Below are positions 6,226 through 26,521 of a DNA stretch of 26,521 bases, piece by piece; the first letter of the stretch is position 1, and each line of letters begins with the position of its first letter. This DNA is from a virus (taxonomy: Duplodnaviria > Heunggongvirae > Uroviricota > Caudoviricetes). Made by a program: the position numbers and the translations under genes. A model generated the notes under the pieces. The model was not told the origin of the DNA and made no database searches. It was given only the letters and a program-made list of their open reading frames with translations. The stretch is taken from IMG/VR virus record IMGVR_UViG_2875722834_000004, one strand, 5' to 3'.

Positions 6226-6274
6226 GAAATTTTCTTTAACTACTGCAATTACTCATACCACGAAATAAAAGACG

Positions 6275-7004: not shown

Positions 7005-7184
7005 ATGAAAAACGCATTGCAGTTTTTGTTTGTTGCGTTCTGGTTGTTCGCATCATGTATGCCCATCATCTTCACAGCAAGGTATATGGAAAAAGTTGAT
7101 GTTTTGATATTAATATTTGGATATATAAATGCCCTTTTTTTAGGGGTGTTCATGGCGGTCATGTGCATTGAATACTGGCGGTAA
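7005..7184 (+). CDS. Small hydrophobic protein (59 aa, two predicted transmembrane segments)
   Basis: ATG 7 nt downstream of a consensus AGGAGG (6995-7000); protein MKNALQFLFVAFWLFASCMPIIFTARYMEKVDVLILIFGYINALFLGVFMAVMCIEYWR; lies in an AT-rich islet. Confidence 0.5.
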   Translation: MKNALQFLFVAFWLFASCMPIIFTARYMEKVDVLILIFGYINALFLGVFMAVMCIEYWR

Positions 7185-7439
7185 ATACAGCGAACTCCAT
7201 TGGTTTAGTTGGATATTTACTGTGCTGGACAAAAACGGTTTGCGGGGAAATCTTAGTTAAGTAGAATGACTGCGGGTGCTTGAGGCTATCTGCCTCGGGC
7301 ATGGACACCAACGGCAGATAGAGAAAAGCCCCAGTTAACATTACGCGTCCTGCAAGACGCTTAACATTAATCTGAGGCCAATTTCATGCTAGACACATGT
7401 AGGTTAGCCTCTTACGTGCCGAAAGGCACGGAGAAGCAG

Positions 7440-8900: not shown

Positions 8901-9268
8901 TCATTTTCGGGTGGTTTGTTACTTGTTTTACCGGGGATATGCCAGAAACGCGCTGAGTCAGTCTGGGCGGTGCGCGTAATGAGGCGTTATGGTAAATAGC
9001 CTATGCTAATGTCCGCTAAGAGCAAGAAGCGGAAGTTGGCAGTTTTGTGGACTGTCCCCACAAAAGTGACTACAGAAATAGTTGCAATTCATAATTGATC
9101 ATGGGTTGTCAGTTAAACTCGTGGCGATTTAAATAGACTAATTGGGAGTGCGTCCATTACTTATATCTTGTAATGTTAACTATCAGAAATGATACAAAGA
9201 TAATATGTCTTTAAAGAAAAGGCTGATGGCGAAAAGTGGCCCGATGAGGGCCACAATACGGCTGTCAC

Positions 9269-9601
9269 TTAGACGTAAATATCAATGGTGCCAGCGGTAT
9301 TTGTATCGTCTTTTTTCTCTTCTTTTTTATCAGGCTGAACTGTCGCGTCTTCATTCTTTTTCTCTGCCTGCTGCCTTAACAACTGCTCCAGTTGAGCCCA
9401 GAGGCTTTCAATTTGCTTCTGTACCAATGCAGCCATTTCTTTTTTCTGCTGTGTCGTCATCCCCTCTTCCGATGAGATTTTCCCAAGCTTTTCAGTCAGC
9501 ACCTGAATTTGTCTTGTGATTTTGGCTATTTCTGATGTTCCTTCCGGGGCGGAGTTGTTTGAAATAACGGTTGAGGTATTTCCCTGAATTGTGACAGACA
9601 T
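9269..9601 (-). CDS. flxA: FlxA (FliA-regulated protein of the Qin prophage), 110 aa
   Basis: Recalled match to E. coli FlxA; GGAGA SD before the ATG; consensus sigma-28 promoter immediately upstream. Confidence 0.8.
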   Translation of the reverse strand: MSVTIQGNTSTVISNNSAPEGTSEIAKITRQIQVLTEKLGKISSEEGMTTQQKKEMAALVQKQIESLWAQLEQLLRQQAEKKNEDATVQPDKKEEKKDDTNTAGTIDIYV

Positions 9602-9624
9602 AGATTTCTCCTTTTAAAAAAGCA

Positions 9625-9651
9625 CTATCGGCATGCACAAAAAAATCTTTA
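9625..9651 (-). promoter_or_regulatory. Sigma-28 (FliA) class 3 promoter for flxA
   Basis: Minus strand reads TAAAGATT-N11-GCCGATAG, matching the FliA consensus TAAAGTTT-N11-GCCGATAA, about 25 nt upstream of the flxA start. Confidence 0.6.
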
Positions 9652-9803
9652 ATCGTATTTCTTGTGTCATTAATTGTTTGATGTTCAGATTGTTTTCCTC
9701 GCGGGCTGGCGCGCCTCAGAAAGTAAAGCTTGTTGACAGGGGTAAACGTTCGGCAATAATTTTCTGCCGCATGCGGGTGTTGCATAAAACGTGTTACGTT
9801 CCT

Positions 9804-10109
9804 TTATCGACAGGTCAGGTCACCGCTCACCCGCCGACGAGAAAGCAACACTGACATGCTAAAGCAAAAAATAGATGAATAAGTTGAGTTGTGCATATGT
9901 AGCCTGACCGTCACAAAGTATATGGTGTCTGTACCAGTAAGATGATGGCCGGACTCTTTAAAAACGAGCTGACCTGCACAATACAGGATGGACTTAGCAA
10001 TGGCTGCTCCTGGCACAAAGCGGACAGTGATCACCGTTCTTACGACTACTTTCTGACTTCCTTCGTGACTTGCCCTAAGCATGTTGTAGTGCGATACTTG
10101 TAATGACAT
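9804..10109 (-). CDS. ydfV: Hypothetical protein in the ydfV position (101 aa)
   Basis: 101-aa ORF between flxA and relB, same length and position as ydfV in Qin; sequence identity not verified. Confidence 0.4.
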   Translation of the reverse strand: MSLQVSHYNMLRASHEGSQKVVVRTVITVRFVPGAAIAKSILYCAGQLVFKESGHHLTGTDTIYFVTVRLHMHNSTYSSIFCFSMSVLLSRRRVSGDLTCR

Positions 10110-10122
10110 TTGTAATTACAAG
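10097..10122 (+). promoter_or_regulatory. relBE operator/promoter region (relO-like inverted TTGTAAT repeats)
   Basis: CTTGTAATGACATTTGTAATTACAAG palindrome directly upstream of the relB SD and ATG. Confidence 0.55.
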
Positions 10123-10133
10123 AGGTGTAAGAC

Positions 10134-10373
10134 ATGGGTAGCATTAACCTGCGTATTGACGATGAACTTAAAGCGCGTTCTTACGCCGCGCTTGAAAAAA
10201 TGGGTGTAACTCCTTCTGAAGCGCTTCGTCTCATGCTCGAGTATATCGCTGACAATGAACGCTTGCCGTTCAAACAGACACTCCTGAGTGATGAAGATGC
10301 TGAACTTGTGGAGATAGTGAAAGAACGGCTTCGTAATCCTAAGCCAGTACGTGTGACGCTGGATGAACTCTGA
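10134..10373 (+). CDS. relB: RelB antitoxin (79 aa)
   Basis: MGSINLRIDDELKARSYA...PKPVRVTLDEL matches E. coli RelB; stop overlaps the relE start (TGATG). Confidence 0.9.
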   Translation: MGSINLRIDDELKARSYAALEKMGVTPSEALRLMLEYIADNERLPFKQTLLSDEDAELVEIVKERLRNPKPVRVTLDEL

Positions 10374-10498
10374 TGGCGTATTTTCTGGATTTTGACGAGC
10401 GGGCACTAAAGGAATGGCGAAAGCTGGGCTCGACGGTACGTGAACAGTTGAAAAAGAAGCTGGTTGAAGTACTTGAGTCACCCCGGATTCGAGGTTAA
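10373..10498 (+). pseudogene. relE: Truncated relE toxin gene (first ~39 codons, then unrelated sequence and a stop)
   Basis: MAYFLDFDERALKEWRKLGSTVREQLKKKLVEVLESPRI matches the RelE N-terminus; the frame then reads RG and stops, lacking the RelE C-terminal catalytic half. Confidence 0.8.
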
Positions 10499-10608
10499 GA
10501 AAGCTCTCAGTCTCGACTATCGGCACTGGATAATCTCTGTCAGGCTGCCTTATTCCGAACGCCCACCACGTGCGTCCCGCACTTTCCAGCAACGGATCTG
10601 GAGGTAAC

Positions 10609-11658
10609 GTGCGGGTATTACTTAGACCTGTTCTGGTGCCTGAGCTTGGGCTGGTGGTCCTTAAGCCGGGCCGTGAATCCATACAGATATTTCATAATCC
10701 TCGAGTGCTGGTGGAACCGGAACCAAAAAGCATGCGTAATCTGCCATCCGGAGTCGTTCCTGCCGTTCGCCAGCCGCTGGCGGAAGACAAAACATTGCTG
10801 CCGTTTTTTAGTAACGAACGGGTGATTCGTGCTGCTGGCGGCGTTGGCGCATTGTCCGACTGGCTATTACGTCATGTTACATCCTGCCAGTGGCCTAATG
10901 GCGATTACCATCACACTGAAACAGTCATTCACCGTTATGGTACCGGCGCAATGGTGTTGTGCTGGCACTGCGACAACCAACTGCGTGACCAGACATCGGA
11001 ATCACTGGAGCTGCTTGCTCAACAAAATCTGACAGCATGGGTGATTGACGTCATCCGTCACGCAATAAGCGGTACGCAGGAGCGGGAATTATCTTTGGCT
11101 GAATTATCCTGGTGGGCGGTCTGCAATCAGGTGGTGGATGCACTACCTGAGGCTGTATCGCGTCGTTCGCTGGGATTACCAGCGGAAAAAATCTGCTCGG
11201 TGTACCGCGAAAGCGACATCGTACCGGGAGAGCAGACCGCCACCAGCATATTGAAACAACGCACAAAAAATCTTGCACCGTTGCCTTACGCCCACCAGCA
11301 ACAAAAATCACCACAGGAAAAGACGGTGGTAAGCATCACCGTTGATCCAGAGTCTCCGGAATCTTTCATGAAGCTGCCTAAACGTCGCCGCTGGGTTAAG
11401 GAGAAATACACACGTTGGGTTAAGACACAGCCGTGTGCTTGCTGCAGTATGCCAGCCGACGATCCGCATCATCTGATTGGTCACGGGCAGGGCGGAATGG
11501 GAACAAAAGCACATGATCTCTTTGTGTTGCCTTTGTGCAGAAAGCATCACAACGAGCTGCATACGGATACAGTGGCATTTGAAGATAAGTATGGCTCCCA
11601 ACTGGAGCTGATATTTCGTTTTATCGATCGCGCGCTGGCAATTGGCGTACTGGTGTAA
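10609..11658 (+). CDS. ydfU: YdfU-like protein (DUF968-type) with a C-terminal HNH/zinc-finger-like motif
   Basis: GTG start 4 nt after a GGAGG SD; 349 aa, the length I recall for K-12 YdfU; C-terminus has CACCSMPADDPHHLIGHG...CRKHHNELH. The six-frame ORF extends upstream to 10570. Confidence 0.7.
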   Translation: MRVLLRPVLVPELGLVVLKPGRESIQIFHNPRVLVEPEPKSMRNLPSGVVPAVRQPLAEDKTLLPFFSNERVIRAAGGVGALSDWLLRHVTSCQWPNGDYHHTETVIHRYGTGAMVLCWHCDNQLRDQTSESLELLAQQNLTAWVIDVIRHAISGTQERELSLAELSWWAVCNQVVDALPEAVSRRSLGLPAEKICSVYRESDIVPGEQTATSILKQRTKNLAPLPYAHQQQKSPQEKTVVSITVDPESPESFMKLPKRRRWVKEKYTRWVKTQPCACCSMPADDPHHLIGHGQGGMGTKAHDLFVLPLCRKHHNELHTDTVAFEDKYGSQLELIFRFIDRALAIGVLV

Positions 11659-11671
11659 GTGGAGAACGAGC

Positions 11672-12424
11672 ATGAACCTTGAAGCCTTACCAAAATATTA
11701 CTCCCCAAAATCTCCAAAATTGAGCGATGACGCTCCAGCGACAGGCACCGGTTGTTTAACAATTACGGATGTAATGGCAGCGCAGGGGATGGTGCAGTCG
11801 AAAGCACCACTTGGGTTGGCCTTATTTCTGGCAAAAGTTGGTGTTCAGGACCCTCAGTTTGCGATTGAAGGCCTGCTAAATTACGCGATGGCACTGGATA
11901 ACCCGACATTGAACAAATTGAGTGAAGAAATCCGGTTACAGATTATTCCTTACCTCGTGAGTTTTGCCTTTGCTGATTACTCCAGGTCTGCGGCAAGTAA
12001 GGCTCGCTGTGAGCATTGTTCAGGTACGGGATTTTATAATGTATTGCGCGAAGTGGTGAAACACTACAGACGCGGGGAATCTGTAATCAAGGAAGAATGG
12101 GTGAAGGAACTATGTCAGCATTGCCATGGTAAGGGCGAAGCCAGCACAGCGTGCAGAGGGTGTAAGGGTAAAGGGATTGTTCTGGATGAAAAAAGAACCC
12201 GGTTTCATGGCGTACCGGTATATAAGATTTGTGGGCGTTGTAATGGAAACCGGTTTAGTCGTTTACCGACCACGCTGGCACGACGTCATGTCCAGAAGCT
12301 GGTACCAGACCTGACCGATTATCAGTGGTATAAGGGGTATGCGGACGTCATTGGTAAACTGGTAACAAAGTGCTGGCAGGAAGAAGCATACGCGGAAGCG
12401 CAATTGAGGAAGGTGATGAGATAA
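11672..12424 (+). CDS. quuQ: Late-gene antiterminator Q homolog (QuuQ-like), 250 aa
   Basis: Cys/His-rich zinc-binding region (CEHCSGTG...CQHCHGKG...CRGCKGKG...CGRCNG) typical of Q-family antiterminators; sits upstream of the lysis cassette. Confidence 0.75.
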   Translation: MNLEALPKYYSPKSPKLSDDAPATGTGCLTITDVMAAQGMVQSKAPLGLALFLAKVGVQDPQFAIEGLLNYAMALDNPTLNKLSEEIRLQIIPYLVSFAFADYSRSAASKARCEHCSGTGFYNVLREVVKHYRRGESVIKEEWVKELCQHCHGKGEASTACRGCKGKGIVLDEKRTRFHGVPVYKICGRCNGNRFSRLPTTLARRHVQKLVPDLTDYQWYKGYADVIGKLVTKCWQEEAYAEAQLRKVMR

Positions 12425-12845
12425 ATGATTTTTGCTGAAGATGGCGACATGATGTTTGCATTTTTCAAAAAATATGGATAAAATTTTTTCAACGATGGGC
12501 TTTGTATACCCGACGTTAAGAAAAAGTAGAAAACCTGCTGATGAGCGGGTTTTGTGCTTTAAATGGGGCAATGGTAATGTTGAATATCATCCCGGGACTC
12601 ATGTCTGTTAACTTATTATTTAGCTGGTGACTTGGTTATTTGCCTGATGTTTAAAATGTTTTCTTCCAGTACAATGTCCCTAAACACAATGAGTCTGCTT
12701 ATTATATTATTAGCAGAGCTATTACGGCCAAAGTACAGCATAAGCTTTTAAAGCCAATCAACCAGTCATCAAGACAGACGGGGTTATTCATAAAAACTCT
12801 CCATGTGTGATCCGATGGGGCCTGAAATTAAAGCTTTAATATAGC

Positions 12846-13058
12846 TCATGAAAGGTAAACATTGGCAGCTGAAGGGCCACGCAGACCATTTATCCGGCAA
12901 AATTCCACGCGTAATCCGGTGGTAATTTCTTCTGCATCGCGGAGATTGAGCGCTGAAACATGAAGCTGGACATCGATACGACCATCGGATGGGGTGATAA
13001 GACCCTTGCCGCTTTTGCCGTCAAAGGTTTTGACAATTCCTGTCATTTTACGGGACAA
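12846..13058 (-). CDS. cspF: Cold-shock-domain protein CspF-like (70 aa)
   Basis: [37 protein letters not shown]...; cold-shock domain, divergent from cspB as in Qin. Confidence 0.8.
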
Positions 13059-13358
13059 AAAAATTCCTTAATACTGATAACTTGGCGCACTATACACACG
13101 TTCCTGAAGAAAGCTATAGTTTTTTGATGGGGTTGAAGATGGCTGGATGTCTAAAATAAACATTGCTTCATATGTTCAACTATGCGTTAATGATTGCGTC
13201 GGTTTGAAGAACAGACGATATACGAAGTAGTTTACTAAAGCAGTTCTCATTTCAGGTGTTATTCACTTATTCCTTCTTTGAGTCTCTCCAATTAAGTACG
13301 AAGTCGTTTCTGTTATGCAAACCATTTATGCCGAAAGGCTCAAGTTAAGGAATGTAGA

Positions 13359-13574
13359 ATGTCAAATAAAATGACTGGTTTAGTAAAATGGTTTAACGCT
13401 GATAAAGGTTTCGGCTTTATTTCTCCTGTTGATGGTAGTAAAGATGTGTTTGTGCATTTTTCTGCGATTCAGAATGATAATTATCGAACCTTATTTGAAG
13501 GTCAAAAGGTTACCTTCTCTATAGAGAGTGGTGCTAAAGGTCCTGCAGCAGCAAATGTCATCATTACTGATTAA
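13359..13574 (+). CDS. cspB: Cold-shock protein CspB-like (71 aa)
   Basis: [38 protein letters not shown]... with RNP1/RNP2 motifs; AGGAAT SD; long upstream leader. Confidence 0.85.
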
Positions 13575-13855
13575 AATTCATCGCTCGTCTGTATACGATA
13601 ACGAAGAAGGCTGATGCCTGAGTAGAGATACGGACAGAGTAGTGAATATTGGATCTCTTTAATAAAAAGTAAGGAGGTCCAATACATGAAACAATGGCTA
13701 GCATATTTGGCAAAATCTTAATCAGGAAAAGTATGCTAACCATTGTGGTGAAGTGCAGGTTTGCTGCATGAATAGTTTTACAGCAGAAGCTAACTGCTGG
13801 CATGGCAAAACAAAGTGCGTAAGTGGATGACTCCCACAAAAAGCACCACAATCTC

Positions 13856-13880
13856 AAACCCGCTCAGGCGGGTTTTTTAT
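13856..13880 (+). terminator. Rho-independent terminator downstream of cspB
   Basis: AAACCCGC-TCAG-GCGGGTTT stem-loop followed by a T-run. Confidence 0.6.
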
Positions 13881-13937
13881 TATCTGCTTTAAATATATTA
13901 TTAAAATATAAAAAATACTTGTTACTAATAAAATCAA

Positions 13938-14108
13938 TCAGGCTACAGCTTTAAGATTTGTCTGGAATACTTTGTTGCAATGAGGGCAGATCAAAAGGGC
14001 ACCTTTTTGTACTCTTGAAAAACTGTGTTCTGACTCTTGGGGGCAGTTTGGGCAGGAACATTTAACGAGATAATTACGGCGTGATTTTGAGTTTTTACGT
14101 TCTGACAT
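13938..14108 (-). CDS. Small zinc-ribbon protein (56 aa), hypothetical
   Basis: AGGAAA SD 6 nt before ATG (MSERKNSK...); CxCxxC...CxxC arrangement (CSCPNCP...CPHC). The longer six-frame ORF (73 aa) lacks an RBS. Confidence 0.35.
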   Translation of the reverse strand: MSERKNSKSRRNYLVKCSCPNCPQESEHSFSRVQKGALLICPHCNKVFQTNLKAVA

Positions 14109-14327
14109 AGGCTTTTCCTGTATAAATGGCCGTATACAGTACACTAAATATGAAAACATTTCTCGTATTATTATTTTATATATGACTTTCTTTCAAAATA
14201 ATTACCCACATTTTTAATGTGTATGTTTTTTTAGCGCCGTTGAGAACAACGTGTGCTGTCAAAACTACCCCGTAGACTCCGATCTTTTCAAACATATTGC
14301 ACCATCCGTGTACATCGGGGTGAGGAT

Positions 14328-14543
14328 ATGAAATCAATGGATAAGTTAACAACAGGTGTTGCCTATGGCACATCGGCGGGTAATGCTGGTTTCTGGGCAT
14401 TGCAGTTACTCGATAAAGTAACTCCGTCACAGTGGGCTGCAATCGGTGTGCTGGGTAGCCTGGTTTTTGGCCTGCTGACGTATCTGACAAATCTTTATTT
14501 CAAGATTAAAGAAGACAGGCGTAAGGCTGCGAGAGGAGAGTAA
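14328..14543 (+). CDS. essQ: Phage holin (EssQ/EssD-like), 71 aa
   Basis: [71 protein letters not shown]; GAGGA SD; followed by ydfR and the endolysin as in Qin. Confidence 0.85.
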
Positions 14544-14547
14544 TCCA

Positions 14548-14859
14548 ATGACTCAAGACTATGAACTGGTTGTGAAAGGAGTCCGTAATTTTGAGAATAA
14601 AGTTACGGTAACTGTAGCCTTACAGGACAAAGAACGCTTTGACGGTGAAATTTTTGACCTGGATGTCGCCATGGACCGTGTTGAAGGAGCTGCGCTGGAG
14701 TTTTATGAGGCAGCAGCCAGAAGGAGCGTCCGGCAAGTCTTCCTGGAAGTAGCAGAAAAATTGTCAGAAAAAGTTGAGTCTTATCTGCAGCATCAATACT
14801 CCTTTAAGATTGAAAATCCTGCCAATAAGCACGAGCGTCCTCATCATAAATATCTATGA
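14548..14859 (+). CDS. ydfR: YdfR-like protein (DUF1327), 103 aa
   Basis: Position between holin and endolysin; stop overlaps the endolysin ATG (ATGA). Confidence 0.75.
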   Translation: MTQDYELVVKGVRNFENKVTVTVALQDKERFDGEIFDLDVAMDRVEGAALEFYEAAARRSVRQVFLEVAEKLSEKVESYLQHQYSFKIENPANKHERPHHKYL

Positions 14860-15048
14860 ACACAAAAATCAGATACGGCCTGTCGGCTGCCGTTCTGGCG
14901 CTGATTGGTGCTGGCGCATCTGCTCCTCAGATACTTGACCAGTTTCTGGACGAAAAAGAAGGTAACCACACAATGGCATACCGCGATGGTTCTGTGAACC
15001 GCCCCGGGAATCCTGGAGACTAAACTTCCTGAGAAAGAGGTAAACAGG

Positions 15049-15375
15049 ATGACTAAAAATACTCGTTTTTCCCCCGAAGTCCGTCAACGGGCAGTCCGTA
15101 TGGTTCTGGAAAGTCAGAGCGAATATGACTCACAATGGGCGACAATTTGTTCCATTGCTCCAAAGATTGGCTGTACGCCGGAGACTCTGCGTGTCTGGGT
15201 TCGCCAGCATGAGCGGGATACCGGGGGCGGTGATGGAGGGCTCACCACCGCTGAACGTCAGCGTCTGAAAGAGCTGGAACGTGAAAATCGTGAACTGCGC
15301 CGCAGTAACGATATCCTTCGCCAGGCTTCCGCTTATTTTGCGAAGGCGGAGTTCGACCGCCTCTGGAAAAAATGA
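15049..15375 (+). CDS. IS629 OrfA (transposase N-terminal/HTH protein), 108 aa
   Basis: [23 protein letters not shown]...; leucine-zipper-like C-terminus; overlaps orfB in the -1 frame. Confidence 0.9.
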
Positions 15376-16262
15376 TGCCACTGCTGGATAAGCTGCGTGA
15401 GCAGTACGGGGTCGGACCGCTATGCAGCGAACTGCATATTGCCCCGTCAACGTATTACCACTGTCAGCAACAGCGACATCATCCGGATAAACGCAGTGCC
15501 CGTGCGCAGCGCGATGACTGGCTGAAGAAAGAGATACAGCGCGTATACGATGAAAATCACAAGGTATACGGTGTGCGTAAAGTCTGGCGTCAGTTGTTAC
15601 GGGAAGGTATCAGAGTGGCCAGATGCACTGTGGCACGTCTCATGGCGGTTATGGGACTTGCCGGTGTTCTCCGGGGTAAAAAGGTCCGTACGACCATCAG
15701 CCGGAAAGCCGTTGCCGCAGGCGACCGCGTAAACCGTCAGTTCGTGGCAGAACGACCTGACCAGCTGTGGGTGGCTGATTTTACTTACGTCAGCACATGG
15801 CGGGGCTTCGTCTATGTGGCGTTCATCATTGATGTGTTTGCCGGATACATCGTGGGGTGGCGGGTCTCATCGTCCATGGAAACGACATTCGTGCTGGATG
15901 CACTGGAGCAGGCGTTATGGGCCCGTCGACCGTCCGGCACGGTCCATCACAGTGATAAAGGTTCTCAGTATGTATCGCTGGCCTACACACAGCGGCTTAA
16001 GGAAGCCGGATTACTGGCATCAACAGGAAGTACAGGCGACTCGTATGACAACGCGATGGCGGAGAGCATCAATGGTCTTTACAAAGCGGAGGTAATACAC
16101 CGTAAGAGCTGGAAAAACCGTGCAGAAGTGGAACTGGCCACACTCACGTGGGTGGACTGGTATAACAATCGACGATTGCTGGAAAGGCTGGGCCATACTC
16201 CTCCGGCAGAAGCAGAAAAAGCTTATTATGCTTCCATCGGAAACGATGATCTGGCAGCCTGA
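15372..16262 (+). CDS. IS629 OrfB (DDE transposase catalytic domain), 296 aa
   Basis: rve-type DDE domain (WVADFTYV...[10 protein letters not shown]...[13 protein letters not shown]); -1 frame relative to orfA, consistent with IS3-family OrfAB frameshifting. Confidence 0.9.
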
Positions 16263-16662
16263 GTTCACAGATAAAACACTCTCCAGGAAACCCGGGGCGG
16301 TTCACTGGCATATGGACCATCTGTCGGGGTGCCACAGTGGTGGATGGAAAAACCGTTTTTCCCAATATGAAACTGTCGAAGGAAAAATGCGACCAGGTCA
16401 ACGCCATTGAGCGTGATAAGGCGCTGGCATGGGTGGAGCGCAATATTAAAGTACCACTGACCGAACCACAAAAAGCGGGTATCGCGTCATTTTGTCCCTA
16501 TAACATTGGCCCCGGTAAGTGTTTCCCGTCGACGTTTTATAAGCGGCTGAATGCTGGTGATCGTAAAGGTGCATGCGAAGCGATTCGCTGGTGGATTAAG
16601 GATGGCGGACGCGATTGCCGCATTCGTTCAAATAACTGTTACGGTCAGGTTATTCGTCGTGA

Positions 16663-17196
<534 letters not shown>

Positions 17197-17558
17197 GGTA
17201 ATATTAAATCGGAACATTTACATCGCGGAATGTAAAATTTAAATAAAAAGGACTCTTCCATGAGCCAAAATTCCTGAAATCTTAAGGGTAAGATAAAAGG
17301 TCTTAATCAGAATGACACGTTTTATTAATAAATAAAGCTATTCTTTCATTGCTGTGTTTTTCTTTACAAAAGTAATCCTTGCTATGGGTGGTTAATCATG
17401 CGTTAATGGTGTTCTGGTTTGTTACAAATTTATCTGAAGCAGTCATTGTTATAATTTTATTATTTGTACCTCTTGAGATTTCCTTGTTGGTTTTTCTCTC
17501 TGATATTTTTTTTCGGACCATTCTGCCCAAGGGCTAATTTCTTCAAAAGGTAATAATT

Positions 17559-17771
17559 ATGTCTAACAAAATGACTGGTTTAGTGAAATGGTTTAACCCT
17601 GAAAAAGGTTTTGGTTTCATCACGCCGAAAGATGGCAGCAAAGATGTGTTTGTCCATTTCTCAGCAATTCAGAGCAACGATTTCAAAACATTAACTGAGA
17701 ATCAGGAAGTTGAATTTGGTATTGAGAACGGACCTAAAGGTCCTGCCGCTGTTCATGTAGTGGCGCTTTGA
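17559..17771 (+). CDS. cspI: Cold-shock protein CspI-like (70 aa)
   Basis: [70 protein letters not shown]. Confidence 0.9.
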
Positions 17772-17781
17772 GGTAGACAAT

Positions 17782-17970
17782 ATTACAAACCATATTCACT
17801 TTAGATGCCCGTGTTGTCATGGTTCCCAGTATAGAACATCATCTTTTGATGTTTCTGACATGAATCCTTTCGGGGCAAAATGTATCTTTTGTAAATCAAT
17901 GATGATTACATTTGATAATATTTCACAATACTTAAATGCCAGCCGTCTGTCGTTGGATTTAAAAAAGTGA
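17782..17970 (+). CDS. ynfN: YnfN-like zinc-ribbon ORF (CPCCHG...CIFCK) with no canonical start codon in frame
   Basis: Open frame ...HFRCPCCHGSQYRTSSFDVSDMNPFGAKCIFCKSMMITFDNISQYLNASRLSLDLKK*; the only in-frame ATG (17860) lies after the first CxxC pair. Possible ATT start at 17782 seven nt after a GAGGT; followed by a terminator. Gene-symbol assignment is by position and motif only. Confidence 0.3.
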   Translation: MTNHIHFRCPCCHGSQYRTSSFDVSDMNPFGAKCIFCKSMMITFDNISQYLNASRLSLDLKK

Positions 17971-17975
17971 AAATG

Positions 17976-17999
17976 AAGGCTCCTTCGGGAGCTTTTTTG
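17976..17999 (+). terminator. Rho-independent terminator
   Basis: GGCTCC-TTCG-GGAGC hairpin followed by TTTTTTG, just after the ynfN-like stop. Confidence 0.55.
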
Positions 18000-18042
18000 C
18001 TTGGTGTCTATTCGATGGATACTCACATACTACGGTAACATC

Positions 18043-18273
18043 ATGAAAAAAATCATAGTTTTTTTTAACTCTGAACCAGCAGTGGTAGTGCCAGCGATGA
18101 CTGGAGTTAACACCATCATGCGTGAATATCCAAATGGCGAAAAAACACACCTTACTGTAATGGCCGCAGGGTTTCCATCTCTGACCGGAGATCATAAAGT
18201 CATTTATGTAGCCGCGGATCGACATGTTACTTCAGAAGAAATTCTGGAAGCAGCAATAAGGCTCTTGAGTTGA
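18043..18273 (+). CDS. Hypothetical small protein (76 aa)
   Basis: ATG-initiated ORF (MKKIIVFFNSEPAVVVPAMTGVNTIMREYPNGEK...) between the ynfN-like ORF and gnsB; weak RBS; no recognised family. Confidence 0.3.
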   Translation: MKKIIVFFNSEPAVVVPAMTGVNTIMREYPNGEKTHLTVMAAGFPSLTGDHKVIYVAADRHVTSEEILEAAIRLLS

Positions 18274-19237: not shown

Positions 19238-19471
19238 TCAATCTGGTCTGACCTGTTTTCTGAGCAATTCAGTAATGTCACTCTTTTCTTTGTTTGCTTC
19301 AGAAGAAACTCTTTTTTCTGAGCACAGTCTCCGGCGGCAGGCTTCAATGACCCAGGCTGAGAAATTCCCGGACCCTTTTTGCTCAAGAGCGATGTTAATT
19401 TGTTCAATCATTTGGTTAGGAAAGCGGATGTTGCGGGTTGTTGTTCTGCGGGTTCTGTTCTTCGTTGACAT
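19238..19471 (-). CDS. ynfO: Small basic protein in the ynfO position (77 aa)
   Basis: 77-aa ORF adjacent to the phage right-end/cos sequence; basic N-terminus; assignment by position and length only. Confidence 0.45.
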   Translation of the reverse strand: MSTKNRTRRTTTRNIRFPNQMIEQINIALEQKGSGNFSAWVIEACRRRLCSEKRVSSEANKEKSDITELLRKQVRPD

Positions 19472-19657
19472 GAGGTTGCCCCGTATTCAGTGTCGCTGAT
19501 TTGTATTGTCTGAAGTTGTTTTTACGTTAAGTTGATGCAGATCAATTAATACGATACCTGCGTCATAATTGATTATTTGACGTGGTTTGATGGCCTCCAC
19601 GCACGTTGTGATATGTAGATGATAATCATTATCACTTTACGGGTCCTTTCCGGTGAT

Positions 19658-19681
19658 CCGACAGGTTACGGGGCGGCGACC
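19658..19681 (+). other. Lambda-type cos site: right-end terminus CGACAGGTTACG followed by the 12-nt cohesive end GGGCGGCGACCT
   Basis: 19500-19860 is nearly identical to the joined right and left ends of phage lambda (…CCGACAGGTTACG|GGGCGGCGACCTCGCGGGTTTTCGCTATTTATGAAAATTTTCCGG…), continuing into Nu1. Confidence 0.85.
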
Positions 19682-19859
19682 TCGCGGGTTTTCGCTATTT
19701 ATGAAAATTTTCCGGTTTAAGGCATTTCCGTTCTTCTTCGTCGTAACTTAATGTTTTTATTTAAAATACCCCCTGAAAAGAAAGGAAACGACAGGTGCTG
19801 AAAACGAGCTTTTGGGCCTCTGTCGTTTCCTTTCTCTGTTTTTGGCCGTGGAATGAACA

Positions 19860-20108
19860 ATGGAAGTCAACAAAAAGCAGCTGGCTGACATTTTCGGTGC
19901 GAGTATCCGTACCATTCAGAACTGGCAGGAACAGGGAATGCCCGTTCTGCGAGGCGGTGGCAAGGGTAATGAGGTGCTTTATGACTCTGCCGCCGTTATA
20001 AGATGGTATGCCGAAAGGGATGCTGAAATTGAGAACGAAAAGCTGCGCCGGGAAGTTGAAGAACTGCGGCAGGCCAGCGAGACAGATCTCCAGCCATCCG
20101 TGAGGTGA
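19860..20108 (+). pseudogene. Terminase small subunit Nu1, truncated after ~80 codons (NohQ/NohA-like remnant)
   Basis: First 80 aa near-identical to lambda Nu1 (MEVNKKQLADIFGASIRTIQNWQEQGMPVLRGGGKGNEVLYDSAAV...RQASE); the frame then reads PSVR and stops at a deletion junction with gene A sequence. Confidence 0.85.
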
Positions 20109-21790
20109 ATGTGGTGAAGTCTGCCCGTGTCGGTTATTCCAAAATGCTGCTGGGTGTTTATGCCTACTTTATAGAGCATAAGCAGCGCAACACACTTATC
20201 TGGTTGCCGACGGATGGTGATGCCGAGAACTTTATGAAAACCCACGTTGAGCCGACCATCCGCGATATTCCGTCGCTGCTGGCGCTGGCTCCGTGGTATG
20301 GCAAAAAGCACCGGGATAACACGCTCACTATGAAGCGTTTTTCCAATGGTCGTGGCTTCTGGTGCCTGGGCGGTAAAGCGGCAAAAAACTACCGTGAAAA
20401 GTCGGTGGATGTGGCGGGTTATGATGAACTTGCTGCCTTTGATGAGGATATTGAACAGGAAGGCTCTCCGACGTTCCTTGGCGACAAACGTATTGAAGGC
20501 TCGGTCTGGCCAAAGTCCATCCGTGGCTCCACGCCCAAAGTGAGAGGCACCTGCCAGATTGAGCGTGCAGCCAGTGAATCCCCGCATTTTATGCGTTTTC
20601 ATGTTGCCTGCCCGCACTGCGGGGAGGAGCAGTATCTTAAATTTGGCGACAAAGAGACGCCGTTTGGCCTCAAATGGACGCCGGATGACCCCTCCAGCGT
20701 GTTTTATCTCTGCGAGCATAATGCCTGCGTCATCCGCCAGCAGGAGCTGGACTTCACTGATGCCCGTTATATCTGCGAAAAGACCGGGATCTGGACCCGT
20801 GATGGCATTCTCTGGTTTTCGTCATCCGGTGAAGAGATTGAGCCGCCGGACAGCGTGACCTTTCACATCTGGACGGCGTACAGCCCGTTCACCACCTGGG
20901 TGCAGATTGTCAAAGACTGGATGAAAACGAAAGGGGATACGGGAAAACGTAAAACCTTCGTAAACACCACGCTCGGTGAGACGTGGGAGGCGAAAATTGG
21001 CGAACGTCCGGATGCTGAAGTGATGGCAGAGCGGAAAGAGCATTATTCAGCGCCCGTTCCTGACCGTGTGGCTTACCTGACCGCCGGTATCGACTCCCAG
21101 CTGGACCGCTACGAAATGTGTGTATGGGGATGGGGGCCGGGTGAGGAAAGCTGGCTGATTGACCGGCAGATTATTATGGGTCGCCACGACGATGAACAGA
21201 CGCTGCTGCGTGTGGATGAGGCCATCAATAAAACCTATACCCGCCGGAATGGTGCAGAAATGTCGGTATCCCGTATCTGCTGGGATACTGGCGGGATTGA
21301 CCCGACCATTGTGTATGAACGCTCGAAAAAACATGGGCTGTTCCGGGTGATCCCCATTAAAGGGGCATCCGTCTACGGAAAGCCGGTGGCCAGCATGCCA
21401 CGTAAGCGAAACAAAAACGGGGTTTACCTTACCGAAATCGGTACGGATATCAATATCAAACCGGGCCATGATTATTACTTTTATATCCGCAGTGTGAACA
21501 CCGTTGGCAAATCGGCATTCGTGGAGGCTGTCGGTCAGGCGAGCGATGATGCGGAAGGTTACCTGGATTTTTTCAAAGGCCAGATAACCGAATCCCATCT
21601 CGGCAAGGAGCTGCTGGAAAAAGTCGAGCTGACGGAGGATAACGCCAGCAGACTGGAGGAGTTTTCGAAAGAGTGGCAGGACGCTAACGATAAGTGGAAT
21701 GCCATGTGGGGCGTCAAAATTGAGCAGACCAAAGACGGCAAACATTATGTCGCGGGTATCCAACAGCGTATGGAAATATCATTCACCTGA
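20105..21790 (+). pseudogene. Chimeric remnant: terminase large subunit A (internal ~448 aa, lacking the N-terminus) fused in frame to a C-proximal segment of tail protein J
   Basis: Residues from [14 protein letters not shown]... to ...VYLTEIGTD match lambda gpA; from about 21449 the ORF reads [22 protein letters not shown]...[24 protein letters not shown], matching lambda J, then ends. Confidence 0.8.
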
Positions 21791-21795
21791 AAGGG

Positions 21796-22641
21796 ATGAC
21801 AGCCGTTGGCGAAGGTGAGTTACTCATCGGCTGGAGTGGTACAAGCGGTGCTCATGCTCCGGCATTTATTCGTTCACGACGGGATACGACCGACGCAAAC
21901 TGGTCGCCGTGGGCGCAGCTTTACACCTCGGCTCATCCTCCTGCAGAGTTTTATCCAGTCGGTGCACCAATCCCGTGGCCATCAGATACCGTTCCGTCTG
22001 GCTATGCCCTGATGCAGGGGCAGACTTTTGACAAATCTGCATACCCGAAACTTGCAGCGGCTTATCCGTCAGGCGTGATCCCTGATATGCGTGGCTGGAC
22101 GATTAAGGGCAAACCTGCCAGTGGTCGGGCCGTATTGTCTCAGGAACAGGACGGCATTAAATCGCATACCCACAGCGCCAGCGCATCCAGTACGGATTTG
22201 GGGACGAAAACCACATCGTCGTTTGATTACGGCACTAAATCCACGAATAACACTGGTGCGCATACCCATAGTTTAAGTGGCAGCACGAATGCAGCTGGTA
22301 ATCACAGCCATAGAGATGGCCGTCGATTTAACCCCAGTGTTTTTAAAGATACTTATCAATATGGTTATACAAGCTCAGGTCAAAATACCTGGGGTGTACA
22401 AGGCTCAGTAGGTATGTCTACGGGGTGGTTAGCTAATACCAGTACAGATGGTAATCATAGCCACTCACTGTCCGGCACAGCAGCATCTGCAGGTGCACAC
22501 GCGCATACTGTCGGTATTGGTGCTCATACGCACTCCGTTGCGATTGGTTCACATGGACACACCATCACCGTTAACGCTGCTGGTAACGCGGAAAACACCG
22601 TCAAAAACATCGCATTTAACTATATTGTGAGGCTTGCATAA
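21796..22641 (+). CDS. Side tail fibre protein fragment (Stf C-terminal region) with His-rich repeats
   Basis: ATG with AAGGGA SD; repeated G-x-H-x-H motifs (GAHTHS, GNHSHR, GNHSHS, GAHAHT, GAHTHS, GSHGHT) typical of lambda/Rac/Qin Stf C-termini; followed by tfa. Confidence 0.7.
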
Positions 22642-23216
22642 TGGCATTCAGAATGAGTGAACAACCACGGACCATAAAAATTTATAATCTGCTGGCCGGA
22701 ACTAATGAATTTATTGGTGAAGGTGATGCATATATTCCGCCTCATACAGGTCTGCCAGCAAACAGTACCGATATTGCACCGCCAGATATTCCGGCTGGCT
22801 TCGTGGCTGTTTTCAACAGTGATGAGTCATCGTGGCATCTCGTTGAAGATCATCGGGGTAAAACGGTTTATGACGTGGCTTCCGGCGACGCGTTATTTAT
22901 TTCTGAACTCGGTCCGTTACCGGAAAATGTTACCTGGTTATCGCCGGAAGGGGAGTTTCAGAAGTGGAACGGCACAGCCTGGGTGAAGGATACGGAAGCA
23001 GAAAAACTGTTCCGGATCCGGGAGGCGGAAGAAACAAAAAACAACCTGATGCAGGTAGCCAGTGAGCATATTGCGCCGCTTCAGGATGCTGCAGATCTGG
23101 AAATTGCAACGGAGGAAGAAATCTCGTTGCTGGAAGCATGGAAAAAGTATCGGGTATTGCTGAACCGTGTTGATACGTCAACTGCACAGGATATTGAATG
23201 GCCAGCACTGCCGTAG
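22641..23216 (+). CDS. Tail fibre assembly protein (Tfa), 191 aa
   Basis: Size and position directly downstream of stf (TAATG overlap); resembles lambda Tfa. Confidence 0.8.
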
Positions 23217-23313: not shown

Positions 23314-23904
23314 TTATATGTCAGGTGTCTGAAGTTTTGCTTTGGCTCTTAAAATGGTTTGCCGCGAGGTTTTGAATTCCCGGGCAATGGCACTTATACT
23401 TACACCTGACTTAATTCGTTCGAATACCACCTGTTTCTGTTCTTCATTTAACACAGGTGGTCGACCAAAACGTTTCCCTGCGCCGCGGGCTCTTACTATC
23501 CCGGAATGAGTGCGTTCAAGTAAAAGGTCTCGTTCAAATTCAGCGACTGCTGAAATTACGTGCATCATCATTTTTCCTGTTGGACTGGTCAGGTCAATGC
23601 CCCCCAATGCTAAGCAATGCACTCTGATACCTGTTTCGGTCAGTTGTTCCACTGTTTTCCTGATATCCATTGCATTACAACCAAGGCGATCCAGTTTTGT
23701 CACAATCAATTGATCACCACATTTCAGGCGAGCAAGCAACCGGTTAAAACCAGGACGCTCACTGGTTGCTGCTGAGCCGCTAATGTGTTCTTCGATTATT
23801 TGCTGAGGTTTGATTTTAAAACCTGCACTTTCGATTTCCCGGCGTTGATTTTCGGTGGTCTGATCCAGCGTTGATATCCGACAGTAAGCAAAAATTCGAG
23901 ACAT
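23314..23904 (-). CDS. Serine recombinase / DNA invertase of the Pin/Gin/Hin family (PinQ/PinR-like), 196 aa
   Basis: [20 protein letters not shown]... with the catalytic Ser in the CRISTLDQ motif and a C-terminal HTH; convergent with tfa. Confidence 0.9.
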
Positions 23905-24454: not shown

Positions 24455-25237
24455 GAAGATATTCCTTAAAATATTATTGATTTTCATTGCGATATTGTAT
24501 GTCTGATTCAGGATATGTTGACTTATACATCGGTTTTGTCTGGGTTATTGGATATGCCAATCCCTAATTTTATTAGGGCATGACTAAAAATGCTGAATAT
24601 GATAAGGAGAGAAGTGATTATCAGTATGCTGTTCATATAGCCTCGAATTAGTAATGTGTTATATATGATATAGTTGACAATTTTATCTTGGGTGTTCTTA
24701 AAGTTCGTAGATAAACATTGTCGTTTCAGGTATACAGGAATGCTAACAGGTGGCGGCAAAAATCAGGCGGTTTATGGCGCAATCTGAAGTGGCAACTGCA
24801 AACTATCTTATGCAGAGACTCTACACGGATTGGGTTTAAAAGTATACATAGATAACAGTTTTTATCTGAAGAAGAAAAATATCAAGGTGATATAGCCTAT
24901 ATGCCTTTGATGTGGAGGAATGAATGTGATGGGAGTGATGTATCTGAATAGTTGAAAAACCGCAGACACACCTTATGCAAGAACGTGCTGCGGTTGGCTG
25001 GTAAATTTTTCGATAGTGCGAGTATTGAATGATTTCCAGCCGTTATTGATTTTACGCGTAAATCCATGAAAAAACTACTTATCTGTTGGGGAGTTTTTTG
25101 GGGCATATATGGGACAGAAATAGGCCCCAGATAGACACTGAGATCGAACTTAGGATGCTTTTAAAAAAATGCAACTATCTGAAAAAACCTAGAAAACGCC
25201 AAGGAAACCACAGGATGGGAAAAAACACCTGTGAATT

Positions 25238-26521
25238 ATGGATTTCCAGTTATATTCGCTCGGCGCAGCGTTAGTGTTTCATGAAATATTTTTTCCTGAA
25301 TCATCAACGGCAATGGCGTTAATTCTGGCAATGGGAACCTACGGTGCAGGTTATGTGGCGCGTATTGTCGGAGCATTTATTTTCGGCAAAATGGGCGACA
25401 GAATAGGGCGTAAAAAAGTGCTCTTTATTACCATCACCATGATGGGGATCTGTACCACCTTAATTGGTGTGTTACCGACCTATGCACAGATTGGTGTTTT
25501 TGCCCCCATCTTGCTGGTGACGCTGCGTATTATTCAGGGATTGGGTGCAGGTGCGGAAATTTCCGGTGCCGGTACGATGCTGGCGGAATATGCGCCAAAA
25601 GGTAAGCGCGGAATTATCTCCTCATTTGTGGCTATGGGAACTAACTGCGGAACCTTAAGCGCAACGGCAATCTGGGCCTTTATGTTCTTCATTCTCAGTA
25701 AAGAGGAACTGCTGGCGTGGGGATGGCGTATACCGTTCCTGGCGAGCGTTGTCGTGATGGTCTTTGCTATCTGGTTACGTATGAATCTGAAAGAAAGCCC
25801 GGTCTTTGAGAAGGTTAATGACAGCAACCAACCGACAGCAAAACCTGCACCTGCTGGTAGCATGTTCCAGAGCAAATCCTTCTGGCTGGCAACAGGGCTG
25901 CGTTTTGGTCAGGCGGGTAACTCCGGGTTAATTCAGACTTTCCTTGCAGGCTATTTAGTGCAGACGTTATTGTTTAACAAAGCAATTCCAACAGATGCAT
26001 TGATGATCAGTTCGATTCTCGGCTTTATGACCATTCCGTTCCTTGGTTGGTTATCCGATAAAATTGGTCGCCGGATCCCGTATATTATTATGAATACCTC
26101 TGCGATTGTGCTGGCGTGGCCAATGCTTTCTATCATCGTAGATAAAAGCTATGCCCCGAGCACCATTATGGTTGCACTGATTGTGATTCATAACTGTGCG
26201 GTGCTGGGATTATTTGCTCTGGAAAACATTACCATGGCAGAAATGTTCGGCTGTAAAAACCGCTTTACCCGGATGGCTATTTCAAAAGAAATTGGTGGTC
26301 TTATCGCTTCCGGTTTTGGTCCTATCCTGGCGGGTATTTTCTGCACCATGACGGAATCCTGGTATCCGATCGCCATTATGATCATGGCATATTCAGTGAT
26401 TGGTTTAATCTCTGCGCTGAAAATGCCAGAAGTGAAAGACCGTGATTTAAGTGCGCTGGAAGACGCTGCGGAAGATCAACCGCGTGTTGTAAGAGCTGCG
26501 CAACCTTCCAGAAGTCTGTAA
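25238..26521 (+). CDS. ydfJ: MFS-family transporter YdfJ (host gene at the prophage junction; N-terminus removed by the prophage insertion)
   Basis: 427-aa ORF with multiple transmembrane helices and MFS signature (GRIGRKK, RIPF); an in-frame TGA lies 2 codons upstream of the first ATG; GC content rises here. Confidence 0.8.
   Translation: MDFQLYSLGAALVFHEIFFPESSTAMALILAMGTYGAGYVARIVGAFIFGKMGDRIGRKKVLFITITMMGICTTLIGVLPTYAQIGVFAPILLVTLRIIQGLGAGAEISGAGTMLAEYAPKGKRGIISSFVAMGTNCGTLSATAIWAFMFFILSKEELLAWGWRIPFLASVVVMVFAIWLRMNLKESPVFEKVNDSNQPTAKPAPAGSMFQSKSFWLATGLRFGQAGNSGLIQTFLAGYLVQTLLFNKAIPTDALMISSILGFMTIPFLGWLSDKIGRRIPYIIMNTSAIVLAWPMLSIIVDKSYAPSTIMVALIVIHNCAVLGLFALENITMAEMFGCKNRFTRMAISKEIGGLIASGFGPILAGIFCTMTESWYPIAIMIMAYSVIGLISALKMPEVKDRDLSALEDAAEDQPRVVRAAQPSRSL

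Follow-up and report, generated by a model that had tools for sequence, protein, structure and literature searches.

The 26,521-nucleotide stretch of DNA analysed here (the window) was found to carry the packaging (late-gene) end of Qin, a cryptic lambdoid prophage integrated in ydfJ of Escherichia coli, as identified from its sequence. With a probability of roughly 0.88, the best explanation as a whole is that this late-gene end, in an HH107-like lineage, has been reduced by at least four deletions to pseudogene debris, and that the cos beside it is a passive substrate. The element is not novel: Qin, its Nu1 homologue nohA, the lambda-like cos and the variation in size between strains have already been documented, with a described size range of 11-97 kb (PMC6379469). 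As a discovery it matters little, since a complete lambda-type cos accompanied by fragments of terminase, tail-tip and tail-fibre genes is ordinary for E. coli; a lambda-type cos was present in 3,969 of 5,426 complete genomes, about three quarters. The decay state of this Qin allele is rare and strain-specific.

The assignment to Qin is based on gene content, integration site and sequence identity. HH107 and KL53 show 100% identity to the window across a 7.5-kb cos-containing query, and the features annotated under this match include pinQ, tfaQ and ydfO, with nohA and the terminase remnants annotated as pseudogenes. The window differs from the HH107 locus only by five substitutions and one IS insertion, which places it in a lineage very close to that strain, and segments of K-12 Qin are 99.8-100% identical to it. 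The HH107 annotation comprises the Qin gene set: dicB, ydfD, relB, cspB/F/I, ydfT, lysis genes, ydfO, ynfO, nohA, stfQ, tfaQ, pinQ and ydfK. The element, of about 25.3 kb and with a single cos, interrupts ydfJ, rspB and ydfI lying on either side, and has a core repeat of 11 bp. As in a defective prophage, the head and tail morphogenesis genes are reduced to fragments of Nu1, A, J and Stf. The end of the element is marked by two features.

25236-25246: 11-bp att core TTATGGATTTC; the left core copy in the HH107 context lies just outside the window
from 25238: truncated ydfJ (ydfJ')

BLASTN against phage lambda (NC_001416), which the earlier note had proposed as a check, mapped three junctions, and the E-values of the lambda matches are all effectively zero, which excludes chance. 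The lambda right end, the cohesive end and the Nu1 leader are reproduced as that note had described, at 97-98% identity over 19309-20096. Positions 19671-20096 correspond to lambda 1-427 (97.4%, one 1-bp gap), 20095-21449 to lambda 914-2268 (98.0%, no gaps) and 21448-21759 to lambda 17832-18143 (96.8%), and positions 21961-22239 and 22492-23206 match lambda orf-314/tfa at 87% and 94%, respectively. The resulting features are as follows.

19309-19670, plus strand: lambda right-end homologue, lambda 48141-48502 (98.3%), ending at the position of the cosN top-strand nick
19860-20108, plus strand: nohA', truncated Nu1 (TerS), residues 1-79 followed by SVR and a stop (82 aa); Pfam Phage_Nu1 over 1-80
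20095-20096: junction 1, lambda 427 to 914, 2-bp overlap CA, Nu1 codon 79 joined out of frame to A codon 68 with a loss of 486 bp
20095-21449, plus strand: A', terminase large subunit codons 68-520, with 67 aa missing at the N-terminus and 121 aa at the C-terminus
20105-21790, plus strand: A'-J' open frame, 561 aa including 10 out-of-frame codons; a pseudogene in HH107 and KL53
21448-21449: junction 2, lambda 2268 to 17833, A codon 520 joined in frame to J codon 777 over a TA overlap
21448-21759, plus strand: J', tail-tip protein J codons 777-880; Pfam Ig_J_second (J Ig2) and Phage_Tail_Tip
21757-21760: junction 3, lambda J 18143 to Stf nt 2191, TAT overlap, out of frame
21760-22641, plus strand: stfQ', C-terminal 294 codons of the side tail fibre, with an open frame from internal Met743 at 21796
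22641-23216, plus strand: tfaQ, intact tail-fibre assembly chaperone (BLASTN, annotation and Pfam Caudo_TAP)
23314-23904, minus strand: pinQ, intact serine recombinase (Pfam Resolvase and HTH_7)

With regard to the terminase genes, Nu1 had been described as truncated near codon 80 and joined out of frame to A at about codon 60; the truncation (codon 79, at 20095/20096) and the loss of frame were borne out, but A resumes at codon 68. The nohA' product retains the DNA-binding domain (a winged HTH) but has lost the parts for oligomerisation and gpA binding. It differs from lambda Nu1 only by K48R and A75T, with an identical recognition helix and wing, and it is a pseudogene in HH107 (PGAP). Its stop codon is overlapped by the GTG start of A'-J' (GTGA). 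A' contains a partial GpA ATPase and a partial nuclease (Pfam) and shows 27 nucleotide but only 4 amino acid differences from lambda A, with no stop codons. This mostly synonymous divergence is in keeping with a gene whose function was lost only fairly recently. The R410C change of A' is absent from three comparators.

The in-frame fusion of A to J at about 21448, also proposed previously, agrees with both BLASTN and the reading frame, in which ...EIGTD is followed by INIKPG. At junction 3, the J side ends at codon 880 (21759), the Stf side begins at codon 731 of a 1024-aa Qin Stf, and the stop lies at 21788-21790; stfQ' and tfaQ follow downstream, as expected from the earlier reading. The stfQ' product is 84% identical to residues 743-1024 of the MLI105 Stf, with one divergent patch, and contains Pfam Collar and a fibre repeat. 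The remnants nohA', A'-J' and stfQ' probably have no function of their own.

The locus had been interpreted as the outcome of three deletions from the lambda gene order, with a loss of more than 15 kb. Collapse by deletion, rather than descent from a source phage with a different gene order, is supported by less-decayed Qin alleles at the same locus, which keep nohA-A-W-B or lom'-stf-tfa in lambda order. The number of events was nevertheless too low: in KL53, which is an intermediate, A up to about 2618 is joined to J 17824, and this raises the count to at least four. On this comparison, the A-J junction of the window is a secondary 360-bp deletion across an older junction of the KL53 type (A ~2618/J 17824). 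The KL53 state thus precedes that of HH107 and the window, which makes the locus a clean, datable example of stepwise prophage decay. The lambda-ordered packaging, head and tail region would have been cut at least four times, by deletions that are independent of RecA and whose ends share short homology or none: one of 486 bp within Nu1/A, one of about 15.2 kb between the end of A and J codon ~774, one of an inferred 3-4 kb or so between J codon 880 and Stf codon 731, and a later, in-frame one of 360 bp across the A-J junction. These events would have left pseudogene debris (nohA', A'-J' and stfQ') together with intact tfaQ and pinQ.

The distribution of the junctions illustrates how restricted this decay state is. 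Among the 5,426 genomes, junction 2 was found in one uninterrupted piece only in HH107, whereas KL53 and OZ510750 yielded two pieces, 360 bp apart; junction 3 reached full coverage in three genomes. Junction 1 was also found in KL53; in its census, the search joined pieces no more than 550 bp apart, and undeleted genomes also scored full coverage. Other strains show different Qin deletion states, some alleles having a full-length nohA and others none.

Like the window, Qin of K-12 (Kim) occupies the ydfJ site, has the flanking genes ydfO, ynfO, tfaQ, pinQ and ydfK, and shows an identical cos region, including the G54A allele of the cosB site R3. In contrast, its full-length nohA is fused at lambda 719 straight to Stf nt 2122, whereas in the window Nu1 is cut at codon 79, A codons 68-520 and J codons 777-880 are kept, and the Stf join lies 69 nt further downstream. 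These differing joins indicate that the two alleles are independent decay products. Unlike K-12 Qin, the window has kept int, xis and a RecE-like exonuclease, is without dicA/dicC/dicF, hokD and rem, and has its rrrQ interrupted by an IS629-like insertion. Where the dicA/dicC region would lie, its lineage has a DUF977 gene along with a methyltransferase and an IS remnant.

Upstream of the remnants, the lambda-type cos is, as judged by alignment, complete and predicted to be of lambda packaging specificity. The earlier note had allowed that cosB or cosQ elements might prove to be missing; on closer alignment to lambda, cosQ, cosN and the cosB R sites are all present. The subsites were defined according to PMC9026076, PMC4669245 and PMC4856287, the last of which gives the extent of I2 and a 238-bp fragment (lambda 48446-182) that contains cosQ, cosN and cosB. 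No base differs from lambda between the position 100 bp to the left of the nick and bp 53.

19641-19647, plus strand: cosQ heptamer GGGTCCT, at the same offset as in lambda (48473-48479); invariant in all ten aligned cos sequences
19671-19682, plus strand: 12-nt cohesive end GGGCGGCGACCT, core of cosN, identical to lambda 1-12, with flanks that are symmetric and identical to those of lambda
19688-19720, plus strand: I2 (lambda 18-50), between cosN and cosB, identical to lambda
19720-19735, plus strand: cosB R3 (lambda 50-65), 15 of 16 positions matching, G54A at 19724
19736-19778, plus strand: R3-R2 interval with the IHF site I1, A73G and T102C relative to lambda, the same bases occurring in several deposited phages
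19779-19794, minus strand: cosB R2 (lambda 109-124), inverted 16-mer identical to lambda
19820-19835, plus strand: cosB R1 (lambda 151-166), 16-mer identical to lambda

The order and orientation of the subsites (R3-I1-R2-R1, with R2 inverted) are those of lambda. The spacing between cosN and R3 is unchanged since I2 is identical, there is no indel before bp 138, and Nu1 starts, as in lambda, 190 bp from the end. Unlike lambda, the window has G54A in R3 and five other substitutions, with one base missing in the spacers; the absence of base 138 makes the R1-R2 distance 1 bp shorter, a length shared by other aligned phages. The G54A change lies outside the TerS contact segment (bp 55-63) and away from the functional bp 56, 58 and 59 (PMC9026076), and this allele also occurs in the deposited phage PhiR42_1 and in four other aligned Qin alleles. 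As a counterweight to a functional cos, G54A changes a base that the three R sites of lambda have in common, and R1 stands nearer to R2 by 1 bp. The viability of PhiR42_1, which has the same left-end allele, is taken from its database record only. As the terminase genes of the window are truncated, its cos would be usable in trans only. Most of the Qin alleles examined have kept cos. The retention of cos, tfaQ and pinQ in most examined alleles could hint at selection rather than neutrality. However, the allele of WG5::TT12A has lost both cos and nohA, and selection on cos was rejected because its retention is not universal.

We infer that the realistic activity of the Qin cos is that of a passive substrate, for which cleavage by, and recombination with, infecting lambdoid phages are plausible. 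During growth of a lambdoid phage of lambda specificity, its terminase and IHF could bind the chromosomal cosB and nick cosN. Such a break, together with the flanking 97-98% homology, would promote recombination and move Qin alleles into the phage. Recombination between lambda and K-12 cryptic prophages has been shown experimentally, and the authors propose that cos breaks stimulate recombination at DLP12, recombinants with the DLP12 nu1 being viable (PMC3945230). The cos-nohD-A' region of DLP12 resembles the window in having a lambda-like cos, Nu1 and part of A within a defective prophage, but lies at another chromosomal locus and has a different right-end allele (95% versus 100% identity to lambda over the last ~280 bp). 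Packaging begun at the Qin cos would run rightwards into ydfK/ydfJ and host DNA, with no proper termination in the absence of a second cos. In cryptic prophages such as this one, packaging sites that act in cis persist alongside gene fragments of 97-98% identity, with which infecting lambdoid phages can recombine.

The earlier suggestion that a helper phage could package the whole element appears unlikely, given a packaging direction away from most of the prophage, the lack of a second cos match, the size of about 25 kb and the lack of annotated replication genes. We regard as very improbable a reading in which the element depends on a helper as a satellite packaged through cos (PICI-like or cosmid-like) that is excised, packaged by a superinfecting lambdoid phage and moved as a unit. 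Its cos is complete, neither its integrase nor its excisionase carries a pseudogene flag in the HH107 lineage, unlike intQ of K-12, and a dimer of the ~25.3-kb element, at about 50.5 kb, would be near the upper lambda packaging limit; the monomer, however, is far below the packaging minimum. No second match to the 7.5-kb cos-containing query was found in HH107 or KL53, nor does the size fit between two cos sites. The HH107 annotation includes no replication initiator, no repressor or derepression module that could provide helper-responsive regulation, and no packaging-redirection gene, and the gene next to cos is the Nu1 pseudogene, with a truncated TerS and neither Rpp nor an own TerS. In lambda, packaging proceeds from the cosB end into Nu1/A (PMC4669245). 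From the integrated state, it would lead away from 19.7 of the 25.3 kb, with only about 5.6 kb of the element downstream of cos and host DNA as the remainder of a headful. In addition, no excision of K-12 Qin occurred when lambda infected its host (PMC3945230), and a decay state that varies by strain, with one allele devoid of cos, is expected of debris and not of a maintained satellite. The cos-type E. coli PICIs (Rpp) share with the window a chromosomal location, an own integrase and a lambda-like cosN. They also have their own cosB-like site, modules for replication and derepression, the rpp gene in the position of TerS, and a head-sized or capsid-redirecting design (PMC9026076), none of which appears in the annotated HH107 equivalent of the window.

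We give very little credence to the idea that the cos and the truncated Nu1 DNA-binding domain were retained by selection as an anti-phage decoy cos or as a dominant-negative TerS fragment against lambda-type terminase. The winged HTH of nohA' is complete, with the recognition helix and wing of lambda and no gpA-binding end, and cos is present in most Qin alleles examined. However, the truncation is not conserved, nohA being full-length or missing in other Qin alleles, and junction 3, found alongside the truncation in both KL53 and the window, is as rare as noted above (3 of 5,426 genomes). Moreover, lambda grows on K-12. That strain has the same cos allele, and this growth, which is consistent with PMC3945230, argues against protection. 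Scarcely credible is the notion that the junctions are assembly artefacts, or that the source phage had a different gene order and no deletions occurred: the junctions recur in the independent complete genomes HH107, KL53 and OZ510750, the KL53 intermediate exists, lambda order is found on both sides in other Qin alleles, and the fragments break inside conserved domains. The independent genomes and the intermediate already refute this notion.

Returning to the decay of Qin by deletion, the endpoints are reused across strains and most crossovers fall on TA. Five different partners occur joined to lambda A 2268, three to Stf nt 2122, and two each to A ~2618 and Stf nt 2191; the breakpoint at A 2268 is also common to the nohD-annotated (DLP12-like) prophage remnant in E24377A. 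One conceivable, although rather doubtful, explanation is that deletions of the Qin/DLP12 type are made not by random slippage but by a site-preferring enzyme that exchanges DNA at TA within a loosely palindromic CGGR-TA-YCCG. This would explain why the same endpoints have different partners in unrelated strains, and a serine recombinase such as PinQ/PinR (2-bp stagger) or a TA-specific transposase would be a candidate. Pin-type crossover sites at the breakpoints find no support in the sequences: none of the breakpoints is centred in a sequence similar to the 26-bp site of invertases, the core of e14 pix is AA and not TA, and GGRTAYCC occurs in the window at junction 3 itself and once in xis, with none near pinQ. 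A hairpin at the A 2268 breakpoint was rejected as the cause of a hot spot, since shuffled sequences fold as well as the DNA of lambda 2239-2298 (z = -0.05). Literature searches returned nothing relevant on TA-dinucleotide deletions in prophages, or on lambda qin111 and the provenance of PhiR42/ECOR13. If confirmed systematically, the reuse of endpoints and the TA bias would reveal something new about how prophages are dismantled.

As in invertible switches of the Pin/Gin/Cin/Hin type, an invertase gene adjoins the tail-fibre and chaperone genes. We nevertheless rejected an invertible segment around stf/tfa/pinQ, where no convincing inverted crossover sites were found: the best pair, of 27 nt, shows 70% complementarity, and those few that exceed 75% measure only 15-18 nt. 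There is also no second stf/tfa copy in the window locus. In contrast, e14 has an inverted pair of 21 nt with 95% complementarity, and PinQ is 38% identical to its PinE.

This study identified the window, by sequence comparison with K-12 MG1655, as the Qin cryptic prophage; it sits in ydfJ, and its 11-bp core is TTATGGATTTC. Qin is a textbook cryptic prophage, and the locus was already known; its rarity is limited to its particular decay state. The 7.5 kb surrounding the remnants match the E. coli HH107 and KL53 chromosomes at 100% identity, and there the annotation beneath the match names pinQ, tfaQ and ydfO and treats the packaging-gene remnants as pseudogenes. Relative to HH107, the window carries 5 substitutions and one 1310-bp IS629-like insertion. 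The element measures about 25.3 kb here and is split by cos into a left part of 19.7 kb (int to ynfO) and a right part of 5.6 kb (nohA' to ydfK). Lambda-type cos sites like this one occur in 3,969 of 5,426 complete E. coli genomes (median, two copies), and Qin itself is reported from 48% of 638 genomes of Escherichia and Shigella at sizes of 11 to 97 kb (PMC6379469).

Local BLASTN of the window against lambda (NC_001416) reproduced the near-lambda right end and cos and the Nu1-A-J-Stf remnants that the earlier note had recognized. The fragments and their joins are as follows.

19309-19670: lambda right end (lambda 48141-48502, 98.3%)
19671-20096: cos and Nu1 (lambda 1-427, 97.4%, one gap)
20095/20096: junction 1, lambda 427 to 914, CA overlap
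20095-21449: A part (lambda 914-2268, 98.0%)
21448/21449: junction 2, TA overlap, A codon 520 to J codon 777, in frame (...EIGTD/INIKPG)
21448-21759: J part (lambda 17832-18143, within gene J, 96.8%)
21757-21760: junction 3, TAT overlap, J codon 880 to Stf, out of frame
21760-21960: Stf sequence shared with K-12 stfQ, with no match to NC_001416 at the DNA level in BLASTN
21961-22239 and 22492-23206: orf-314 (87%) and tfa (94%)

Pfam scans were consistent with every fragment. The proposed coordinates were correct overall, including the in-frame A-J fusion and the cut in Nu1 near codon 80 with an out-of-frame join to A: Nu1 residues 1-79 are followed by SVR and a stop, and A continues in a different frame. 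However, A begins at codon 68 rather than at about codon 60. The A fragment shows 27 nucleotide differences from lambda, only 4 amino-acid differences and no stop codons, so most of the divergence is older than the inactivation. The TGA stop of nohA' overlaps the GTG that opens the 561-aa A'-J' frame (GTGA, 20105-20108), and the next in-frame GTG codons are preceded by a GAGG at a distance of 5-8 nt. The fusion could therefore conceivably be translated, despite its pseudogene status in the PGAP annotation.

Three deletions from lambda order had been proposed as a minimum. Deletion was borne out, but at least four events are needed, given the intermediate in KL53 and the record OZ510750. These share junctions 1 and 3 with the window but keep 360 bp more at junction 2, where A reaches about lambda 2618 before meeting J 17824. 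On this alignment, junction 2 of the window arose later, when an in-frame deletion of 360 bp took out the older A-J junction. An uninterrupted match to junction 2 was found only in HH107 among the 5,426 genomes, and junction 3 in 3 of the 5,426. The deletions are:

Junction 1: 486 bp
A to J: about 15.2 kb
Across the A-J junction: 360 bp
J to codon 731 of a 1024-aa Stf: about 3-4 kb (inferred size)

A source phage with a different gene order would be an alternative to deletion. Other Qin alleles carry the lambda order on both sides, and the fragments are therefore remnants of a lambda-ordered region. Retention of cos is not universal in Qin, since the deletion in WG5::TT12A (L019, 700-720) runs from inside ynfO to Stf nt 2122 and takes cos and nohA entirely.

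Packaging-region states of other Qin alleles (slash, deletion junction)
K-12: nohA/stf
LZYWN_4: nohA-A-W-B/stf
2018-10-1CC: nohA-A-W-B'/stf
MLI105: nohA-A/lom'-stf, full-length Stf
WP2, TOK-001 and K_EC180: nohA-A'/stf, at three different positions
WG5::TT12A: ynfO/stf, without cos or nohA

With regard to cos, alignment of lambda 48403-200 with the window confirmed that cosB and cosQ are retained. Identity to lambda is complete over the 100 bp left of the nick and over bp 1-53 of the left end; the differences in the region are G54A, A73G, T102C, G134A, loss of base 138, T145G and T176G. Published work of the Feiss laboratory supplied the limits of the subsites: I2 occupies bp 18-50, and all three subsites are contained in a 238-bp fragment (lambda 48446-182; PMC4856287), while R3 spans bp 50-65 with TerS contacts at bp 55-63 and functional bp 56, 58 and 59 (PMC9026076). 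Under these definitions cosQ, cosN, I2, R2 and R1 are unchanged, and R3 bears a single change immediately outside the contact core. An exact copy of the left-end allele is found in the deposited complete genome of phage PhiR42_1 as well as in K-12 Qin and three further Qin alleles, each remaining substitution occurs in several deposited lambdoid phages, and the recognition helix and wing of Nu1 are identical to lambda. The site thus appears, from its sequence, to have every feature of a lambda-specificity cos.

The nohA' and A'-J' remnants are best read as debris. Both frames are annotated as pseudogenes; missing from them are the ends for TerS-TerL interaction, the portal-binding end and part of the nuclease domain. 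Only a tiny lineage shows this truncation pattern. Plausible activity is left to the cis-acting cos alone, and this would be in trans only. After binding cosB and nicking cosN, lambda terminase remains attached to the cosB end, which is translocated; the cosQ end is exposed to nucleases, and termination requires a downstream cosQ-cosN (PMC4669245, PMC4856287). Packaging from the window cos would take in nohA', tfaQ, pinQ and ydfK, then ydfJ and host genes, leaving 19.7 kb of Qin unpackaged. It would also lack proper termination, because no second match to the cos-containing query was found in HH107 or KL53 (one place per genome). Packaging from a single cos yields defective particles, and the 25-kb monomer is too short for a lambda head, which takes about 38-51 kb of DNA bounded by two cos sites. 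The annotation lists no replication or derepression genes. The element tested negative for membership of both the cos-type satellites and the invertible fibre switches. In K-12, infecting lambda was shown experimentally to recombine with Qin, Rac and DLP12; about half of the DLP12 exchanges adjoin cos, hybrids with prophage nu1 are viable, and Qin did not excise during lambda infection (PMC3945230). Given the packaging limits and this recombination, the region most likely acts as a partner in recombination and a store of alleles for lambdoid phages rather than as an element that can be mobilised.

Mapping of junctions across strains revealed that deletion endpoints in prophages of the Qin/DLP12 type recur with different partners.

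Lambda A 2268 (...ACGGATA): J 17833 (window), Stf nt 2167 (WP2), Stf nt 2191 (E24377A), Stf nt 2519 (TOK-001), tfa (MSHS 472)
Stf nt 2122: Nu1 719 (K-12), B 3267 (LZYWN_4), ynfO (WG5::TT12A)
A ~2618: J (KL53), lom (MLI105)
Stf nt 2191: J 18143 (window, KL53), A 2268 (E24377A)

The A 2268 cases were found through a query ending at that position. Some junctions can be serial derivatives, such as WP2 to E24377A through an 8-bp repeat 24 bp apart, but A 2268 must have been used independently in the window-type and the WP2-type junctions. The crossover falls on TA in 10 of 13 junctions, a count that includes two junctions viewed once the pattern was already apparent; the frequency of TA among dinucleotides in this part of lambda is 3.0%. 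Of the first eleven junctions that could be assessed, 8 were on TA (binomial P ~1e-10), and a conservative count gave 5 of 8 (P ~1e-6). Native sites show a weak palindromic context, CGGR-TA-YCCG, whose inner four positions exceed random TA sites in information content (P = 0.002-0.04, sites linked by longer microhomology removed), in a post hoc analysis of 13 sites. Neither a hairpin nor a Pin-type site explains the pattern, and endpoint reuse with TA bias is an unexplained lead. The loci concerned are window 21448 and 21757, L003 (K-12 Qin), L004, L005, L012-L017 and L019.

Near the fibre tip, a patch of about 55 residues (22270-22440, Stf fragment residues ~160-215) is strongly unlike K-12 and MLI105 Stf between identical flanks, which suggests that the receptor-binding part was exchanged by recombination within a defective prophage. 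An IS009 RNA family match above the Rfam gathering score lies within tfaQ (22984-23182). PinQ (23314-23904) shares only 38% identity with the e14 invertase PinE (L018, 4686-5240), no inverted crossover sites were found around stfQ'/tfaQ, and PinQ is an orphan serine recombinase.

Compared with K-12, the packaging end of this Qin allele looks older, but its int end is less decayed. An integrase (431-aa frame), an excisionase and an 835-aa RecE-like exonuclease frame (20-4166, minus strand) are open and unflagged in this lineage, whereas K-12 intQ and ydfE are pseudogenes with IS2 remnants. At 4691-8647, the K-12 immunity block (dicF, ydfC, ydfB, ydfA, dicA, dicC, ydfX) is replaced by a DUF977 gene, a methyltransferase, pseudogenes, a sok-like antisense RNA (7274-7445) and a 437-aa ISNCY-family transposase frame (7519-8832); DicF RNA was not detected within the window. 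At 10484-10489, K-12 L003 15430-16518 is missing, with the 3' part of relE, hokD and rem deleted, and relB remains beside the truncated toxin gene (a relE pseudogene in the HH107 annotation). The IS3-family insertion absent from HH107 (14995-16304) has a 3-bp target duplication, interrupts the lysozyme gene rrrQ and contains an Rfam ALIL frameshift pseudoknot (15330-15446). Thermoregulator leaders of the cspA type, above the Rfam gathering score at 13198-13590 and 17413-17798, probably belong to the cold-shock genes cspB and cspI.
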